A DNA stretch of 64,000 bases from an uncultured Candidatus Saccharibacteria bacterium (GTDB lineage: Bacteria > Patescibacteriota > Minisyncoccia > CAIUEV01 > JAHKAQ01), in the NCBI GenBank assembly GCA_964598205.1, contig CAZRBB010000001.1:28199-92198 (forward strand). The letters run 5' to 3'. A program made the translations under genes and the position numbers. Positions 1 through 26,819 of the stretch are shown in pieces; within the stretch, counting starts at the first letter, position 1; each line of letters starts with the position of its first letter. Below the pieces are notes generated by a model. The model was given only the letters and a program-made list of their open reading frames with translations, was not told where the DNA came from and searched no databases.

Positions 1-1210
1 GTTTGAATGTTTGGTGTTCCTTTTCGTTCTCATTGAGAAGATAAAGCTCCTTGTTAGAATTAATCAGCGCTATTCTTTTGTTGTCGTAAACACTAACTTG
101 GTAAGAAAGGGTTTTGGCGTCTTGGTCTTGATCAATCATGTTTTCCGAAATTTGAACAACTCCTGTTCCTTCTGGATCTGCTTCAAAGATTAAATTACTA
201 GGAGCTTTAACATAGAAAATCTTTCCTCCGGAAAACTCATAACCTTTTACACCTTCTAATACTTTTTGGATTCCCTGTTCTTTAGGAACAAAGGAATAAA
301 GGGTTTCTCCTAACAAAAAAAAGAATCGATCATTGGTTAACCAGCTAAAATTATCAGGAAAAATCGGCTCTGTTTCTATTACCTCTTTTTGTTTGCTTGG
401 TTTTTTGGTTACTACCTTTGGTTTCTGTATTAAAAACGGATCTTCTAGCGGGCTACCAGAGAATGCTGTGAAAGAAAAGGGATCCCCGTTGATTATATTC
501 TTGGAAAGAAATTCCTTGTTTAAATAAATAAAATTTTGCTCGTTAGCTCCATTTTTTTCTAAGTCCTCTATATAAAGAAGATAGTGAAAAAAGGCCTTGC
601 CTTCTTGAACCTTTAATATTGCGCTTTTACTGTCACCAGAAAAAGAAACCTCTTTTAGGAAAAGAGCGTCTTTTCTATTTCTAGGTTCTTCGGCTATTTT
701 TATGGAACTTCCCGTTTTTTCAGAATAAATAAAAATCTTTAAAATTCCCTCTGCTCTACTGGAATAGATTATCTTTTTTCCTCCATCAAATAATTGGTAA
801 AACTCAGGACTAGCAACATCCAAAACTTTTCTAGGGGCATTTTCTTCCGTTAATACAATGTTCCAAAATTCAGTGGCAATTCCCGAATGAATTTGGATTT
901 CTTTTTCCCAAGAAGAAAATCCGGGGCTAGTTATTTTTAATTGGTAAGCTCCTGGTTTAATTCCATTTAGGTTATAGGAATCGTTAATAAGGTCATAGGT
1001 TTTTTTATCTATCTCCTTACCGTTTAGAGAAATATTTACTTTTTTGGGGTTAGATTTTAAGGTAATGGTTCCCGAATGAATCCAAACGCCAGCTTGCCGA
1101 TTAAAGCGATAGCCCAACGCAAAAAAAACAAGCACCACAGAACTTATTAAAAAGGAAATAGTAGAAACTGAGTAAACAAATCTTCTTATTATAGGGATTT
1201 TAGCAAACAT
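1..1210 (-). CDS. Hypothetical membrane-anchored protein with a PEGA-like beta domain. It is partial: the C-terminus lies beyond the window start.
   Basis: Manual translation of the minus strand from ATG at 1210 stays open to position 1, about 400 aa. There is an N-terminal TM helix and a PEGA-like stretch (ISLNGKEIDKKTYDL...GAYQLKITSPGFSSWEKEI). It is absent from the ORF track only because no stop falls in the window. Confidence 0.45.
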   Translation of the reverse strand, partial: MFAKIPIIRRFVYSVSTISFLISSVVLVFFALGYRFNRQAGVWIHSGTITLKSNPKKVNISLNGKEIDKKTYDLINDSYNLNGIKPGAYQLKITSPGFSSWEKEIQIHSGIATEFWNIVLTEENAPRKVLDVASPEFYQLFDGGKKIIYSSRAEGILKIFIYSEKTGSSIKIAEEPRNRKDALFLKEVSFSGDSKSAILKVQEGKAFFHYLLYIEDLEKNGANEQNFIYLNKEFLSKNIINGDPFSFTAFSGSPLEDPFLIQKPKVVTKKPSKQKEVIETEPIFPDNFSWLTNDRFFFLLGETLYSFVPKEQGIQKVLEGVKGYEFSGGKIFYVKAPSNLIFEADPEGTGVVQISENMIDQDQDAKTLSYQVSVYDNKRIALINSNKELYLLNENEKEHQTFK

Positions 1211-2361: not shown

Positions 2362-3450
2362 ATGCAAATTGTTATTTTGGCCGGCGGCCGCGGGACTCGA
2401 CTTTGGCCATTAAGTCGCACAGGGAAGTCCAAGCAGTTCAACGCTATTACCGGGGAAAAGACCATGCTAGAAATAACACTAAATCGTTTCTTAGGTTCCT
2501 ATCCCAAAGAAAAGATTTTTATTTCTACCACGCCAGAATGTTTGGAAAATGTGACTAAGACTCTTCCCGATTTCCCCCAAGAACAAATCATTGTGGAGCC
2601 AGAAATGCGCGATACTGCCGCCGCCATGGGCTTTGTGGCTGGTTTTCTTTCTCTAAAGAATCCCGACGAACCCTTGGCCTTTATTGCTTCTGATCACCAT
2701 ATTCACAATCAAGCCAAATTTTTAGAAATCCTAAAAGTAGCTGAACAAGAAATTAAAGCCACTGGTAAATTACTAGATGTTGGCATTGTTCCCGAAGGAC
2801 CGTCTACCGCCCTAGGCTATACCCGCATTGGTCAGCGGATAAAGGTAGAAAACGGAGTAGAGATTTTTGAATTTTTAGGCCACAAAGAAAAACCGGAATA
2901 CAAAGTGGCACAAGAATATGTAAAAAGCGGAGAATATTTGTGGCACGGTAACTTTTACATGTGGACTCCGAGCGCCTTTTTAGGGGCCTTTGAAACTTAT
3001 GCTCCAGAAATTTACCAAAAATTAAAAGAGATCGTGGAATTGCTAAAGGCAAAAGCACCGGCCGAAAAAATAAAAAGCATTTACCAAGAGATTCCCAAAG
3101 TAATGATTGATCTTGCCCTTACGGAAAAAATGAACAGTCACGATATTTTGATTATTAAAGGTGAATTCGGCTGGAGCGACATTGGCGGTTGGGATGTATT
3201 GCACAAAAAACTGGCTGTAAAGCAAGACGAGCAAGGAAACTTGGTTAAGGGAGAATGGGTAGGGATAGACACTTCTCAAAGTTTAATCTACTCTTATCCA
3301 GGAAAGCTGGTAGCTACGATCGGTGTGGACGATTTAGTGGTAGTAGACACCCCAGACGCCCTTCTGATCTGCCCCAAAGGTCGATCCCAAGAAGTAAAAA
3401 AGATGGTAGAAGAGATTAAGAAGTTAAGGGACGGCGAAAAGTATTTGTAG
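2362..3450 (+). CDS. Mannose-1-phosphate guanylyltransferase / sugar nucleotidyltransferase
   Basis: MQIVILAGGRGTRLWPLSR nucleotidyltransferase signature. The ORF opens at 2317; the internal Met at 2362 is the likely start. Confidence 0.8.
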   Translation: MQIVILAGGRGTRLWPLSRTGKSKQFNAITGEKTMLEITLNRFLGSYPKEKIFISTTPECLENVTKTLPDFPQEQIIVEPEMRDTAAAMGFVAGFLSLKNPDEPLAFIASDHHIHNQAKFLEILKVAEQEIKATGKLLDVGIVPEGPSTALGYTRIGQRIKVENGVEIFEFLGHKEKPEYKVAQEYVKSGEYLWHGNFYMWTPSAFLGAFETYAPEIYQKLKEIVELLKAKAPAEKIKSIYQEIPKVMIDLALTEKMNSHDILIIKGEFGWSDIGGWDVLHKKLAVKQDEQGNLVKGEWVGIDTSQSLIYSYPGKLVATIGVDDLVVVDTPDALLICPKGRSQEVKKMVEEIKKLRDGEKYL

Positions 3451-14498: not shown

Positions 14499-14615
14499 AT
14501 AGTCTTGGCGGTTCAAGCGACAAGGAAACACCTGATCCCATCCCGAACTCAGAAGTTAAGCTTGTCTGCGCCGATGGTAGCGCTTTTGCGCAAGAGTAGG
14601 CCATCGCCAAGACCA
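14499..14615 (+). rRNA. rrf: 5S ribosomal RNA
   Basis: Helix I AGTCTTGGCG/CGCCAAGAC and the conserved internal blocks CCTGATCCCATCCCGAACTCAGAAGTTAAGC, GCGCCGATGGTAGC and GAGTAGG. Flanking GCCCAT/ATGGGC extends helix I as a processing stem. Confidence 0.85.
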
Positions 14616-19160: not shown

Positions 19161-19237
19161 GCCGGCATAGCTCAGTTGGTTAGAGCAACTGTTTTGTAAA
19201 CAGTAGGTCGTCGGTTCGAATCCGACCGCCGGCTCCA
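19161..19237 (+). tRNA. tRNA-Thr (anticodon TGT), CCA encoded
   Basis: GCCGGCA acceptor, anticodon stem ACTGT/ACAGT with loop TTTGTAA, T arm GTCGG-TTCGAAT-CCGAC, discriminator T, terminal CCA. Confidence 0.85.
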
Positions 19238-23012: not shown

Positions 23013-24326
23013 TCAAAGCGACTTTCCTTTTAATCCAAAACTAAAAACATTAGTTACTTTTGCCAAACAAAAATGCCCAACAAGACATTTTTTTTGACCC
23101 TCTTCTAGCTGAATCTTTTTTTTATGCTCAGTTTCTCCCCAAATTATTTTTTTTGATTTTCTTCCTTTAATAAGAACCTTTAATTCTTGCCCAATTAACT
23201 TTTGATTGTTTTTTAGAGCAGTTTTGGTAACTATTTGATTTAAAACAGCTTTTCTTCTTACCTTTTCTTTTTCGGAAATATCAGAAGAAAAACTAAATGC
23301 TACTGTTTGGGGTCGAGGCGAATAACGGGAAATATAGGCCATATCGAATTTGATTTGCTCCATTATCTTTTTGGTTTTTAAAAAATCGCTTTCTGTTTCT
23401 CCAGGAAAACCAACAATAATATCTGTAGTTAGAGAGGCTTCGGGTAACTTTTTCTTTATAGATAAGGCAATGTCCAAATAATGGCTAGCAGTATATTTTC
23501 GGTTCATTGATTTTAGAATTCTGGTACTACCCGATTGAAGCGGCAAATGAATTTGCTTAGCTATTTTAGGTTCAGAAGAAATTGTTTCTAAAAGATCCGT
23601 GGAAAAATCTTTAGGGTGAGAAGTAAGAAATCGGATCCAAAAGTCTCCCTTTATTTTAGCCGCCGCACTTAGTAATCGGGGGAAATCCCAGATATCATTT
23701 TTTTTCTTATCTTGGTAAAAGTAACTGTTAACATTTTGCCCCAAAAGAGTTATTTCCTTAAAGCCTAGATTGGAAAATTGTTCTATCTCTTTTAGAATTT
23801 CTTTTGGCTTTCTAGAAACTTCTCTTCCTCTAGCGTAAGGAACAACGCAATAAGCGCAAAAATTATCACAACCAGTCATAATAGGAATCGAAGCGGAAAA
23901 AGGAGATCCTGATATTGGTTCGATTTTAAAAAACTTTTCTAAAGGAGAGGAGTTATTTTTTTGTAGCGACTCCTTATTATTTCTTAGCAGATTACAAAGA
24001 AGAGGGATGGCCTGATCAATGGGGCTAATCAAAGCCCCCAGTTTTTCCATTTTCAGAGCTACATCGGTGCGGTGCCCTAAGCAACCGGTTAATAAAATTA
24101 TAGTTTCTGGATCTTGGGACCTAATGTTAAAAACAATTCCGTAGGCTTTATTTTCTGCGGATTGGCGGATTCCGCAGCTATTAATAACCACCAAGTCTGC
24201 CTTGTCGGCGGTAGCCAGCTTTTGCAAACCCTGTTTAGCCAAAAAACCGTCTATTCTTTCTGAATCGCTGAGGTTCATTTGGCAACCAAAGGTTCTAATA
24301 AAATAAGTTTTAGGCGATTTTGTCAT
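23013..24326 (-). CDS. miaB: tRNA methylthiotransferase (MiaB-like radical SAM)
   Basis: UPF0004 N-domain (FGCQMN), radical SAM CDNFCAYC cluster, TRAM C-terminus; adjacent to miaA. Confidence 0.85.
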   Translation of the reverse strand: MTKSPKTYFIRTFGCQMNLSDSERIDGFLAKQGLQKLATADKADLVVINSCGIRQSAENKAYGIVFNIRSQDPETIILLTGCLGHRTDVALKMEKLGALISPIDQAIPLLCNLLRNNKESLQKNNSSPLEKFFKIEPISGSPFSASIPIMTGCDNFCAYCVVPYARGREVSRKPKEILKEIEQFSNLGFKEITLLGQNVNSYFYQDKKKNDIWDFPRLLSAAAKIKGDFWIRFLTSHPKDFSTDLLETISSEPKIAKQIHLPLQSGSTRILKSMNRKYTASHYLDIALSIKKKLPEASLTTDIIVGFPGETESDFLKTKKIMEQIKFDMAYISRYSPRPQTVAFSFSSDISEKEKVRRKAVLNQIVTKTALKNNQKLIGQELKVLIKGRKSKKIIWGETEHKKKIQLEEGQKKCLVGHFCLAKVTNVFSFGLKGKSL

Positions 24327-24327
24327 T

Positions 24328-26133
24328 TTACTGCTTGGCGTTGATTTCCTCTTGGATTTTTTTCTTTAATTCCTCTGCTTTCATTACTAGTTGTTCCTTT
24401 TCACCTCTTTTGCGGACAGTTACCGTTTCTTCTTTTTCTTCTTTTTCTCCTACAATAATCATGTAAGGAATTTTCTCTTTTTCGGCATTTCTAATCCGTT
24501 TCCCTAGCGATTCATCGGAGTTATCTGCTTCTGCTCTAATCCCTTCTTTTTTTAAGAGGACAGTAATTTTTTTAGCATAAGCATCAAATTTTTCGGAAAC
24601 AGGGATTACTCTTGTTTGGATAGGGGAGAGCCAGAGAGGGAAGGCACCAGCGTAGTGCTCTATTAAGAAAGCAAAAAATCTTTCAAAGGATCCAATCAGC
24701 GCTCTGTGAATAACAAATGGCCGCTTTTTCTCTCCTGCTGTGTCAATGTAAGACAAATCAAATCTTTCTGGTAAATTAAAGTCCACCTGGATTGTGGAAA
24801 TTGAATCCTCTTTTCCAAAAACATTAACCGCCTGAACATCGAGCTTTGGTCCATAAAATGCGGCTTCGCCTTTGGCTTCATAAAAGTCGATTTTATTTTT
24901 ACTCAAAACCTGACGCAATGTTTCTTCGGCTTTTTTCCAATCTTCCTTTCTTCCTACATACTTATCGCTCTTAGGGTCAGAAAGAGAAAGTCGGAACCGA
25001 TAATTTTTGAAACCTAAATCGCTATAAAATAGAAGGAGCATTTCTAATACTTCCGTGAACTGATCTTCTAATTGTTCGGATGTGCAGTAAATATGGGCAT
25101 CGTTTTGCGTAAAACCCCGCACTCTTTGGAGTCCGTGTAACTCACCAGATTTTTCGTAACGGTAAACAGTTCCTAATTCCCCAATTTTCATTGGTAGTTC
25201 TCTGTAACTTCTTGGCTTCATTTTGTAAACCATCATTCCGGCCGGGCAGTTCATTGGCTTTAGGAGAAAAGTTTCCTTGGCAACAACTTTCTTTCCTTCT
25301 TGTGATTCCTTCAATGATTGTCCGACTTCTAGGGTGGGGTACATACTTTCGTTGTAAAAATTCCAATGGCCGGAAGTTTCAAAAAGTTCTTTACGGTTAA
25401 TGTGTGGGGTTAGAATGTGTTCATAACCGTAGGAGCGTTCCATCTTAATCATGTAATCTTCCAAGGTTCTCCGAATAACATATCCCTTTGGGAGCCAGAC
25501 CGGCAGTCCTTGGCCAATCTCTGGGAAATTAGCAAACAATTCCAACTCTTTTCCCAATTTTCCATGATCTCTTTTTTCGGCTTCCTCGGTTAATCGCAAA
25601 TGTTCCTTTAATTCTTTTTTTGTTTCAAAAGCCAAGCCGTAAATTCGTTGGAGCATTTTATTCTTTTCGTTTCCCTTCCAATAAGCCCCAGCTATTTTTT
25701 GTAAACAAATTCCTTCGGCCTGAATTTTTCCAGTTGATTCTATGTGTGGTCCACGGCATAAATCTGTGAAATTGCCAGTCTTGTAAATAGTTACCGTTTT
25801 TTCTTTAGCTTCTTCTAGGTCTTTAATTAGTTCGGCCTTGTAGGGCTGAGTAGCTTCTGGGAAAATTTTGGCAACTTCCAAGAAAGAAACCTCAGAAACC
25901 AAAAATGGCAGATCTCTTTTAATAATTTCTTTTATTTTTTCTTCTAAAATCGGGAGATCTTCTGGGGAAAGTGGGCGAGGGAGATCAAAGTCATAGTAAA
26001 AACCATAATCAATCGCCGGACCAATGCCGAATTTAGCTTCGGGAAACATTTCTAAAACTGCTAAAGCTAGAACATGAGCAGTGGAATGTCTTAACATTTC
26101 CAATCTTTCTGTTTTTTGGTTGTTCTTTTTCAT
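24328..26133 (-). CDS. thrS: Threonine--tRNA ligase (short form lacking the N-terminal TGS domain)
   Basis: HSTAHVLA editing-domain motif, class II core (HRDLGKELELF), C-terminal anticodon-binding domain. ATG at 26133 chosen as the start; the longer ORF to 26208 begins with TTG and covers the leader element. Confidence 0.9.
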   Translation of the reverse strand: MKKNNQKTERLEMLRHSTAHVLALAVLEMFPEAKFGIGPAIDYGFYYDFDLPRPLSPEDLPILEEKIKEIIKRDLPFLVSEVSFLEVAKIFPEATQPYKAELIKDLEEAKEKTVTIYKTGNFTDLCRGPHIESTGKIQAEGICLQKIAGAYWKGNEKNKMLQRIYGLAFETKKELKEHLRLTEEAEKRDHGKLGKELELFANFPEIGQGLPVWLPKGYVIRRTLEDYMIKMERSYGYEHILTPHINRKELFETSGHWNFYNESMYPTLEVGQSLKESQEGKKVVAKETFLLKPMNCPAGMMVYKMKPRSYRELPMKIGELGTVYRYEKSGELHGLQRVRGFTQNDAHIYCTSEQLEDQFTEVLEMLLLFYSDLGFKNYRFRLSLSDPKSDKYVGRKEDWKKAEETLRQVLSKNKIDFYEAKGEAAFYGPKLDVQAVNVFGKEDSISTIQVDFNLPERFDLSYIDTAGEKKRPFVIHRALIGSFERFFAFLIEHYAGAFPLWLSPIQTRVIPVSEKFDAYAKKITVLLKKEGIRAEADNSDESLGKRIRNAEKEKIPYMIIVGEKEEKEETVTVRKRGEKEQLVMKAEELKKKIQEEINAKQ

Positions 26134-26330
26134 ATATTTGCTTAAATAAAAATAGCCCTTCTTCTTGGCTGTTGAGACTCCGGCTAAACCCGAAGCGGTT
26201 CCACTCAACTTCCCAAAGAATGGGCTCCTTTATTTGTGAAAGATAACGCTCTTTCTTTTTTTAGCGAGAGCTCCCCAGTTGGTGAGTCTGGTTCAAAGCT
26301 CTATAAAACTTAGTCCCAGTCTAGACTTTT
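26134..26330 (-). promoter_or_regulatory. Candidate T-box riboswitch leader of thrS (Thr specifier)
   Basis: The minus-strand segment AAGUUGAGUGGAACCGCUUCGGG (plus coordinates 26189..26211) matches the T-box consensus AAUUAGGGUGGNACCGCGG. An upstream stem AGAGCU/AGCUCU encloses a loop containing UCACCAAC, i.e. ACC followed by A. Confidence 0.5.
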
Positions 26331-26374
26331 TTAAAACGATAAGCAAGTAATTAAGCCTTTAATAAAACAATAAA

Positions 26375-26653
26375 ATGAATTTGATTATTGCCATTAGTCA
26401 GGAAGGAGAAGTTAGTTTATTTTTGGAAAAAAATAAAAAGCGGATTGCCAGTCTTGTCTGGAAAGATAAGAAAGACTTAATGGAAAAACTCCTACCCAAT
26501 ATAGAAAAATTCCTAAAACAAGAAAAAATAAAGCCACAAGATCTAGTAACAGTCAAGGTTTCTTCTGAAATAGAAAAAAACTGTTCCACCTCCCGAATCG
26601 CTATTGCTCAGGCCAAAGCTCTTAACTATTGCTTAGAAGGCACAAAAATTTGA
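26375..26653 (+). CDS. TsaB/YeaZ-like N-terminal domain protein (short, possibly truncated)
   Basis: MNLIIAIS...VSLFL and CSTSRIAIAQAKALNYCL resemble the TsaB N-terminal actin-like half; only 92 aa. Confidence 0.35.
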   Translation: MNLIIAISQEGEVSLFLEKNKKRIASLVWKDKKDLMEKLLPNIEKFLKQEKIKPQDLVTVKVSSEIEKNCSTSRIAIAQAKALNYCLEGTKI

Positions 26654-26819
26654 CATTTCTAAAATAGTTGCTAGAATCCCCGCTAGAAGTAATACTCTTT
26701 TAAGGGTGGCAGAAAACTTAGTCAACAAAATTAAATAAGTAAAGAGGGCGGCCCGCATCTTGAGGGTTGTGTTTTTTTTTATTTTTTTTATAGCCTTTAA
26801 TCATTCAAACTCTTTTACC

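Follow-up and report, generated by a model that had tools for sequence, protein, structure and literature searches.

Does the region upstream of thrS, the gene for threonyl-tRNA synthetase (ThrRS), in an uncultured Candidatus Saccharibacteria bacterium sense tRNA-Thr and, if so, by what kind of switch? We addressed this question using a 64,000-nt stretch of contig CAZRBB010000001.1 (positions 28,199 to 92,198; hereafter the window, whose first letter is position 1), in which thrS lies on the minus strand with its ATG beginning at 26133. An initial annotation had proposed that thrS is controlled by a T-box riboswitch with the specifier ACC, a UGGA that matches discriminator base U and a reduced Stem I. 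Our analysis supports this proposal. Judged from its sequence and that of its relatives, the 162-nt leader at 26305..26144 (minus strand) is a real, very small tRNA-Thr-sensing T-box riboswitch. Its "off" hairpin, however, appears to be wired differently from that of every described T-box.

The T-box-like string of the leader is AAGUUGAGUGGAACCGC. The minus strand over 26211..26189 reads AAGUUGAGUGGAACCGCUUCGGG, and we reproduced the earlier count of 14 matches in 17 positions against AAUUAGGGUGGNACCGC; GTGGNACCGC occurs once in the window, where 0.09 occurrences would be expected by chance. With the Rfam T-box model RF00230 in E-value mode, 26305..26170 aligned to the full length of the model (1-219) with 34.9 bits. 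This match is statistically significant (E 2.7e-6 in the 401-nt search, ~4e-4 after scaling to the full window), but its score is far under the gathering score of 93. The low score is due to the 75 consensus Stem I positions that are missing from the leader: the alignment deletes them and puts 8 nt in their place, which bears out the earlier remark that Stem I is short. The lower helix, the UGA/GA, Stem III, the T-box bulge and both antiterminator helices all fall on their canonical counterparts. At gathering thresholds, Rfam reported the 5S rRNA and four tRNAs in the whole window and no T-box.

A second line of evidence comes from a leave-one-out covariance model (R2) that was built from related leaders without the window sequence. 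It matched 26171..26305 with 73.5 bits (E 6.6e-18), its sole match in the 64 kb, and the fold of the leader has a z-score of -3.75. No second T-box was found across the window with models R1 and R2, and no other aminoacyl-tRNA synthetase was present among the ten large window open reading frames (ORFs) that we checked with Pfam.

The related leaders come from a ThrRS-guided retrieval of 171 loci, mostly from Patescibacteria, which we refer to by L numbers. About 30 of the 171 have a UGGAACC-bearing leader 5' of thrS, with the T-box string conserved upstream of these orthologous thrS genes; the leader is absent in four close relatives (L002, L165, L166 and L169; ThrRS identity 70-73%). Two classes can be told apart. 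Class B, to which the window belongs, comprises 12 distinct members with 123-135 nt to the end of helix A1, and class A leaders are longer, with extra hairpins and a 7-nt loop, YYACCAA. In a model-fitted alignment of 12 Patescibacteria leaders, 92.6% of the cells are paired, compared to 26-51% with slid partners, and both partners have changed at 31 of the 34 base pairs. Although such an alignment is biased toward the structure, the controls with slid partners and the leave-one-out search both speak for a real signal. In alignment A4, L162 is misaligned over its 3' half owing to a long A2 insertion, which lowers rather than raises the pair counts. L172 is identical to the window and hence uninformative, and the L171 contig begins within a terminator.

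RF00230 found no match in nine of the 11 class B relatives searched, and where it did detect a relative (two class B and four other leaders) the scores were 35-62 bits, which means that threshold-based annotation overlooks the whole group. One RF00230 match, L030 5949..6121 (plus strand, 38.3 bits), we did not accept as a T-box because it is without UGGNACC. This sub-threshold match, from a Shapirobacteria bin where its neighbours are rplT (L20) and pheS, closes with a GC hairpin and U-tract and may be a different pheST or L20 leader.

The 5' part of the leader, read on the minus strand, consists of the following features.

26267..26302, minus strand: ultrashort Stem I, which RF00230 aligns to the base of the canonical Stem I.
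26302..26298 with 26271..26267, minus strand: lower helix of Stem I, 5 bp.
26291..26288 with 26278..26275, minus strand: upper helix of Stem I, CCAG/CUGG, 4 bp.
26297..26295 with G26294.A26272 and A26293.G26273, minus strand: kink-turn (K-turn) made of the bulge UUU and the tandem G.A and A.G pairs.
26287..26279, minus strand: terminal 9-nt specifier loop, ACUCACCAA.
26280..26283, minus strand: specifier ACC (Thr) at 26283..26281, then the conserved purine A26280.
26238..26266, minus strand: H-type pseudoknot, the Stem IIA/B equivalent, found by brute-force search and covariation.
26266..26263 with 26250..26247, minus strand: pseudoknot helix S1, CGC(U)/(A)GCG.
26255..26251 with 26242..26238, minus strand: pseudoknot helix S2, GAAAG/CUUUC.

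The pairing of AGAGCU (26302..26297) with AGCUCU (26272..26267) in the initial annotation was correct, and it encloses CCAG/CUGG and the loop with ACC and A26280. Compensatory changes occur at all nine Stem I pairs across the 12 leaders. At the sequence level the GA motif of a K-turn is present: its 3' A is invariant, the other K-turn G/A positions are at least 90% conserved in relatives, and RF00230 aligns its own UGA/GA there. The specifier codes for threonine, which suits the thrS gene downstream, and has a purine after it; the same holds for the ACC-A of all class A leaders. Among ten class B leaders no change is seen at the A, the first C or the next A, and almost none at the second C, and U-x-A-C-C-A is kept in the loop throughout class B; the specifier of L012 is ACU, another Thr codon, then A.

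Stem I ends in the 9-nt loop and carries no distal platform of interdigitated T-loops to bind the tRNA elbow. Stem II with its S-turn is missing as well: the pseudoknot starts at 26266, the nucleotide after Stem I, and just 42 nt separate Stem I from Stem III. The pseudoknot scored 23 in the brute-force search, a value reached by none of 200 shuffles, and it contains an F-box-like GCGUUA, as it does in L012. All 12 class B leaders have the same pseudoknot topology with differing helix sequences (at most three of 200 shuffles scored as high in nine of the 12), and both S1 and S2 covary. The leader thus has a Stem IIA/B pseudoknot with an F-box.

The discriminator domain follows, and the one tRNA-Thr gene of the window bears on how it would be read.

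26225..26231, minus strand: purine string AAAGGAG 5' of Stem III, an RRRxG element as defined in PMC7583486.
26212..26224, minus strand: Stem III, CCCA/UGGG with loop UUCUU, then AA at 26211..26210.
26171..26209, minus strand: antiterminator-like domain, from covariance-model alignments.
26209..26204 with 26176..26171, minus strand: helix A1, GUUGAG/CUCAAC, 6 bp.
26203..26197, minus strand: 7-nt T-box bulge UGGAACC, with UGGA at 26203..26200.
26196..26190 with 26183..26177, minus strand: helix A2, GCUUCGG/CCGGAGU, 7 bp, with base pair G26196.U26177.
19161..19237, plus strand: tRNA-Thr(UGU) with discriminator U73 and an encoded CCA.

All four Stem III pairs covary, and 100% of their cells are paired in the 12 leaders. 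Compensatory changes are found at five of the six A1 pairs and at 6/6 pairs in A2, and the 7-nt bulge between the two helices, UGGAACC, is invariant in all aligned relatives. The signature of a discriminator is likewise present: the window reads AGGAG-CCCAUUCUUUGGG-AA and has G26196.U26177 at the base of A2, a pair that is G.U in six of 12 leaders, and the AA is invariant. In relatives the purine string is AAAGAGxG or AAAAAGCG.

The UGGA of the bulge was predicted to pair with a tRNA whose discriminator is U. The tRNA-Thr(UGU) of the window ends in ...GCCGGC-U-CCA, so that U73 complements the A, and this complementarity is judged on UGU isoacceptors, from the window and from L162. The earlier use of this tRNA holds for its discriminator but not for its anticodon, which is UGU, whereas ACC expects tRNA-Thr(GGU). 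ACC probably reads a different isoacceptor; what the UGU tRNA indicates is that the acceptor end of tRNA-Thr in this lineage fits UGGA. In L162, tRNA-Thr(UGU) with U73 lies at 3329..3401 (minus strand), directly 3' of thrS on the opposite strand, and its CCA is not encoded, whereas that of the window tRNA-Thr(UGU) is.

The expression platform, too, departs from that of described T-boxes.

26154..26168, minus strand: 3' strand of the terminator base helix, CCAAGAAGAAGGGCU, which pairs with 26226..26212.
26144..26152, minus strand: U-tract UUUUUAUUU, directly 3' of the base helix.

No complement to the 3' strands of A1 and A2 was found downstream of A1, so a canonical terminator, which shares the 3' half of the antiterminator, cannot be drawn; the helix adjacent to the U-tract excludes Stem III instead. 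The partner of CCAAGAAGAAGGGCU is AGCCCAUUCUUUGGG (26226..26212), made up of the end of the purine string, the 5' strand of Stem III, its loop and part of its 3' strand. In the minimum-free-energy fold with the U-tract blocked, this base helix has 13 bp and A1, the bulge and A2 stay intact inside it. The purine string also serves as its outermost 5' part, with A26226 paired to U26154 and G26225 to C26155. When the 3' strand is withheld, the minimum-free-energy fold has Stem III and A1/A2; when it is present, the nested hairpin forms, favoured by 12.6 kcal/mol in the window and with values of -3.9 to -17.4 in relatives. We infer from this that Stem III forms solely in the tRNA-bound, read-through fold. 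The mutually exclusive folds that the initial annotation had looked to can therefore be drawn, and both covary, but the terminator's competitor is Stem III, which had not been foreseen, and not the antiterminator.

The nested topology recurs in all ten leaders of the clade, even with the U-tract blocked, through base helices of 12-16 bp that differ in sequence. At the equivalent place in each of these ten nested-type leaders a U-tract follows, with 4-7 U after a GC-rich helix. Their Stem III loops vary (UUCUUU, AUCUAU, ACUAU, AGAAAUUAU, UAAUUUGGA and others) and the downstream strand changes in step. When we cross-paired the strands of the ten leaders, cognate strands gave -14.1 compared to -9.0 kcal/mol for non-cognate ones, none of 20000 permutations was as good, and the window's own pair of strands was the best in its row and its column. 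Because a MAFFT alignment of the terminator strands showed register noise, the base helix was judged from per-sequence folds, this cross-pairing, RNAalifold and pair counts. RNAalifold returned the nested topology from an unfitted MAFFT alignment. In that alignment, 80.7% of base-helix cells are paired, compared to 29-61% when slid, with double changes at six of nine pairs; the covariation score of the base helix is 0.405 versus 0.187, and 0/500 shuffles reach 0.405. The same 5' nucleotides thus have two covarying partners, as is typical of riboswitch expression platforms. L012 and L162, both of class B, and the class A leaders carry ordinary T-box terminators, and for this reason the nested form looks like a derived rewiring in one clade.

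We consider it likely that the leader is a tRNA-Thr-sensing T-box that controls thrS, and probably the miaB-like gene behind it, by transcription attenuation through a terminator that sequesters Stem III and encloses A1 and A2. In such a switch, the anticodon of uncharged tRNA-Thr would pair with ACC and its UCCA 3' end with UGGA. Stem III would stack beneath A1 with the flanking purines latched in the minor grooves, as they are in the solved discriminator structures summarised in PMC7583486. The bound tRNA would shield Stem III from the nascent downstream strand, no terminator would form, and the polymerase would read into thrS. Charged tRNA could not complete or stabilise the discriminator; the downstream strand would then displace the 4-bp Stem III, the long hairpin would form beside the U-tract, and transcription would stop. 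The switch would act via Stem III and the purine latch and not by unzipping the antiterminator. The antiterminator alone binds no appreciable tRNA without Stem III (PMC7583486), and since it needs Stem III for tRNA, sequestering Stem III would be a sufficient off-switch.

A T-box with these features could in principle act on translation, and the initial annotation had left room for a translational T-box. In this alternative, the helix and the paired U-tract would occlude an A/U-rich ribosome landing region, which uncharged tRNA would open. The described T-boxes with an ultrashort Stem I are indeed translational (PMC7583486), the U-tract of the window ends just 10 nt from the AUG, the full fold pairs the U-tract with the upstream AAAUAAAGGAG, and where initiation is free of Shine-Dalgarno (SD) sites the ribosome may need an unstructured, A/U-rich leader. 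There is, however, no SD sequence to sequester 5' of thrS. An SD-like motif (GGAG, GAGG or AGGA within 20 nt before the start) precedes just three of the 45 ORFs of the window, and translation initiation in this organism appears to be mostly independent of SD sites; with SD sites so scarcely used by the genome, SD occlusion does not apply. In the ten leaders with the same fold, the distance from the hairpin end to the ATG is 10, 11, 13, 24, 26, 57, 96, 106, 119 and 122 nt, so that in four of them the hairpin ends 96-122 nt upstream. The GC-rich helix followed by 4-7 U is kept in all ten, and relatives have textbook T-box terminators. Because the U-tract is present throughout and the hairpin of several members is too distant to occlude initiation, transcription attenuation is favoured, and a purely translational T-box is unlikely. 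tRNA-Thr-dependent transcription attenuation is the most likely mode of action as predicted from these leaders, although translation may contribute in the window leader itself, with its spacer of 10 nt.

One could also accept the T-box and doubt its terminator: the enclosing helix might not be the regulatory partner of Stem III at all but a constitutive, leaky or bidirectional terminator, or a stability or processing element, and any regulation would then go through some other rearrangement. A1 and A2 persist in both folds, unlike in any described T-box, the pairing of an A-tract with the U-tract around the hairpin resembles a bidirectional terminator, and the thermodynamic gap toward the terminator is big in several members. 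Yet the 3' strands of A1 and A2 have no downstream complement that would allow a canonical terminator, and the helix uses up the Stem III loop, an otherwise unconstrained loop with which its partner covaries. A constitutive terminator before an essential gene would be deleterious, and no convergent gene here needs one. We therefore give this possibility little credence. The position 5' of thrS and a hairpin with a 7-9 nt loop, superficially like an anticodon arm, call to mind the E. coli type of thrS operator, in which a mimic of the tRNA-Thr anticodon arm is bound by ThrRS for self-repression. We rejected this explanation, which is very improbable: the loop bears the codon ACC instead of a Thr anticodon (GGU, UGU or CGU), a complete T-box discriminator with UGGAACC makes up the remaining leader, and the ThrRS of the window is without the N-terminal TGS region according to Pfam. 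That the leader is a degenerate relic or a functionless chance resemblance would fit its score below the Rfam threshold and the four leaderless close relatives. Against this, every helix has compensatory changes across species whose ThrRS is 52-74% identical to that of the window, UGGAACC, ACC-A, the K-turn GA and the AA are invariant or nearly so, and a model blind to the window sequence still finds the leader with an E-value of 6.6e-18. A relic or chance resemblance is barely conceivable.

The preferred reading, a T-box with a Stem III-sequestering terminator, also has points that weigh against it. Both termination and tRNA binding are deduced, as is the way the switch turns, and the leader stays below the Rfam gathering score. 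Stem III has just 4 bp against the 13 bp of a competitor that can nucleate at the exposed loop, and how tRNA would protect it is not obvious. According to reviews, T-boxes that act on transcription depend on the distal Stem I platform, and those with a truncated Stem I on Stem II (PMC7583486, PMC11297988); with neither platform nor Stem II, and with no auxiliary tRNA contact known for the leader, its tRNA affinity may be low. tRNA-Thr(GGU) was found neither in the window nor in the 60 related loci searched, which yielded one further tRNA-Thr(UGU) only. The ten nested-type leaders are interrelated, so that the covariation counts do not stand for ten independent events. A consensus scan for promoters and terminators reported no terminator at the leader, and it was silent on the promoter that we place before it, whose hexamers match at 3/6 and 4/6 positions, a weak assignment. 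The terminator scan is blind to the nested form because it limits loops to 3-8 nt, whereas the "loop" here is the whole domain.

The gene that the leader precedes, its putative promoter and the gene behind it are as follows.

24328..26133, minus strand: thrS coding sequence, 601 aa, ATG at 26133..26131, named threonyl-tRNA synthetase.
26318..26346, minus strand: putative thrS promoter, with -35 TTGCTT at 26346..26341, a 17-nt spacer and -10 TAGACT at 26323..26318.
23013..24326, minus strand: miaB-like gene (UPF0004, Radical_SAM, TRAM), whose start lies 2 nt past the thrS stop.

A Patescibacteria metagenome bin encodes a threonyl-tRNA synthetase of 601 aa that matches this protein with 100% identity and coverage. 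The suspicion that the ORF list runs thrS into the leader proved right: the mechanical list starts the gene at TTG 26208, inside helix A1, and this is an artefact of that list which leaves the public annotation unaffected, ATG 26133 being the start used by public gene callers. AAGGAG (26225..26230) is a perfect SD look-alike 16 nt 5' of the in-frame TTG (26206..26208), which is probably why ORF finders extend thrS into the leader, and the same over-extension probably explains why several database homologues measure 607-618 aa. The ThrRS lacks the N-terminal TGS domain (Pfam reports tRNA_SAD, tRNA-synt_2b and HGTP_anticodon only), its HxxxH editing motif starts at residue 15, and close Patescibacteria homologues are likewise short, at 570-620 aa.

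Relatives have TTGAC(A/T)-17-TATAAT 12-25 nt 5' of Stem I. We placed the window promoter by position on this ground, which puts the transcription start of thrS at ~26311. The miaB-like gene lies directly 3' of thrS in L162, L164, L165, L166 and L169 and farther away in L161 and L163, and in L165 and L166 a miaA-like (IPPT) gene comes after it; the T-box may also control this abutting tRNA-modification gene. On the other side, the thrS leader is separated from rpoB by a 92-aa ORF (26375..26653, plus strand) without a Pfam match, which a public assembly lists as a gene (L172 81..359) and which ends at a promoter-like site of rpoB, TTGACA-16-TAGAAT, at 26650..26677. Elsewhere in the window, the 5S rRNA gene (14504..14612, plus strand) stands alone among protein-coding ORFs; 23S and 16S have no match anywhere in the 64 kb, and the rRNA genes are unlinked.

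Compared to the canonical class I T-boxes (RF00230; Bacillus subtilis tyrS, thrS and glyQS), the leader shares the K-turn at the base of Stem I, the specifier followed by a purine, the IIA/B pseudoknot, an F-box-like CGUUA and RRRxG-Stem III-AA. It likewise shares A1, the UGGNACC bulge, A2 with a G.U base, a terminator-like hairpin with a U-tract, and the aminoacyl-tRNA synthetase gene downstream, ACC being the usual Thr specifier. Unlike them, it is without the internal specifier loop with its S-turn, the C-loop, the elbow platform of double T-loops and the S-turn of Stem II; its terminator encloses the antiterminator by joining downstream sequence to the Stem III region, and its host is a bacterium of the Patescibacteria (candidate phyla radiation, CPR). 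The leader therefore agrees with the sequence-level definitions of a T-box but lacks three features of the canonical transcriptional family, namely the platform, Stem II and the shared-strand terminator, and scores under the Rfam threshold.

Absence of the elbow platform is also seen in accepted class II T-boxes. The actinobacterial ileS T-boxes of class II, with an intermediate or ultrashort Stem I (Sherwood et al. 2015; 6UFG and 6UFM, as cited in PMC7583486), likewise have a truncated Stem I without the platform, keep the K-turn and the IIA/B pseudoknot, and have the same discriminator. They differ in keeping a ~70-nt Stem II whose S-turn is essential for tRNA binding, whereas in our leader the pseudoknot follows directly after Stem I; they sequester the SD, whereas our leader has a U-tract terminator; and they belong to another amino acid and another phylum. 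The leader has no SD sequestered by a helix that alternates with an antisequestrator, and without an SD sequestrator and without Stem II it is not a class II member.

The glycine T-boxes of glyQS resemble the leader in having no Stem II, transcriptional control and a compact size, and Stem II is absent only from glycine T-boxes (PMC11297988). glyQS leaders, however, have a long Stem I with the elbow platform, a strong GGC:GCC pair, no IIA/B pseudoknot and canonical terminators, whereas ours has the pseudoknot, no platform and the specifier ACC.

The class A leaders of other Patescibacteria (for instance L007, L083, L094 and L161) share with the window leader thrS, the phylum, the ACC-A-A loop, UGGAACC, the ultrashort Stem I and a terminator with a U-tract. 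They differ in the loop YYACCAA and in their greater length, with one to three further hairpins after the specifier hairpin and ahead of Stem III, and their terminators are canonical in reusing the 3' half of the antiterminator, unlike that of the window leader. Other examples of class A are L084, L096, L100, L010, L011 and L048. Their layout is GAUUG, a 6-bp stem and an anticodon-loop-like 7-nt loop, followed by the additional hairpins, and in some of them a short outer helix seems to join the specifier hairpin and the next one as a three-way junction. In L149, a class A leader and its terminator lie at 472..632 (plus strand) and thrS at 1989; two small ORFs (130 aa and 191 aa) lie between them, which looks like an insertion.

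We know of no described T-box with a nested, Stem III-sequestering terminator. Our literature search, whose coverage was incomplete, brought up no publication that connects T-boxes to CPR, Patescibacteria, Parcubacteria or metagenomes, and a prior description is possible; TBDB used its short-Stem-I model on Actinobacteria only. Overall, we lean slightly towards the view that Patescibacteria have minimal, co-transcriptional T-boxes (~135 nt to the end of the antiterminator) without platform or S-turn, and that one clade, to which the window belongs, has rewired them into a topology that is new among T-boxes.

A leader without platform and Stem II yet with an intrinsic terminator would allow what an RNA minimally requires for tRNA decoding to be tested directly, given the view of reviews that transcriptional T-boxes need the long Stem I platform for fast tRNA capture (PMC7583486, PMC11297988). 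The nested terminator suggests that switching has an additional, independent lever in Stem III and the purine latch, in keeping with structural evidence that the antiterminator depends on Stem III to hold tRNA. Because the leaders of this group miss the Rfam threshold, the number of T-boxes outside Firmicutes and Actinobacteria is probably underestimated. It would also seem that very small genomes with few regulators still keep RNA-based sensing of tRNA charging.

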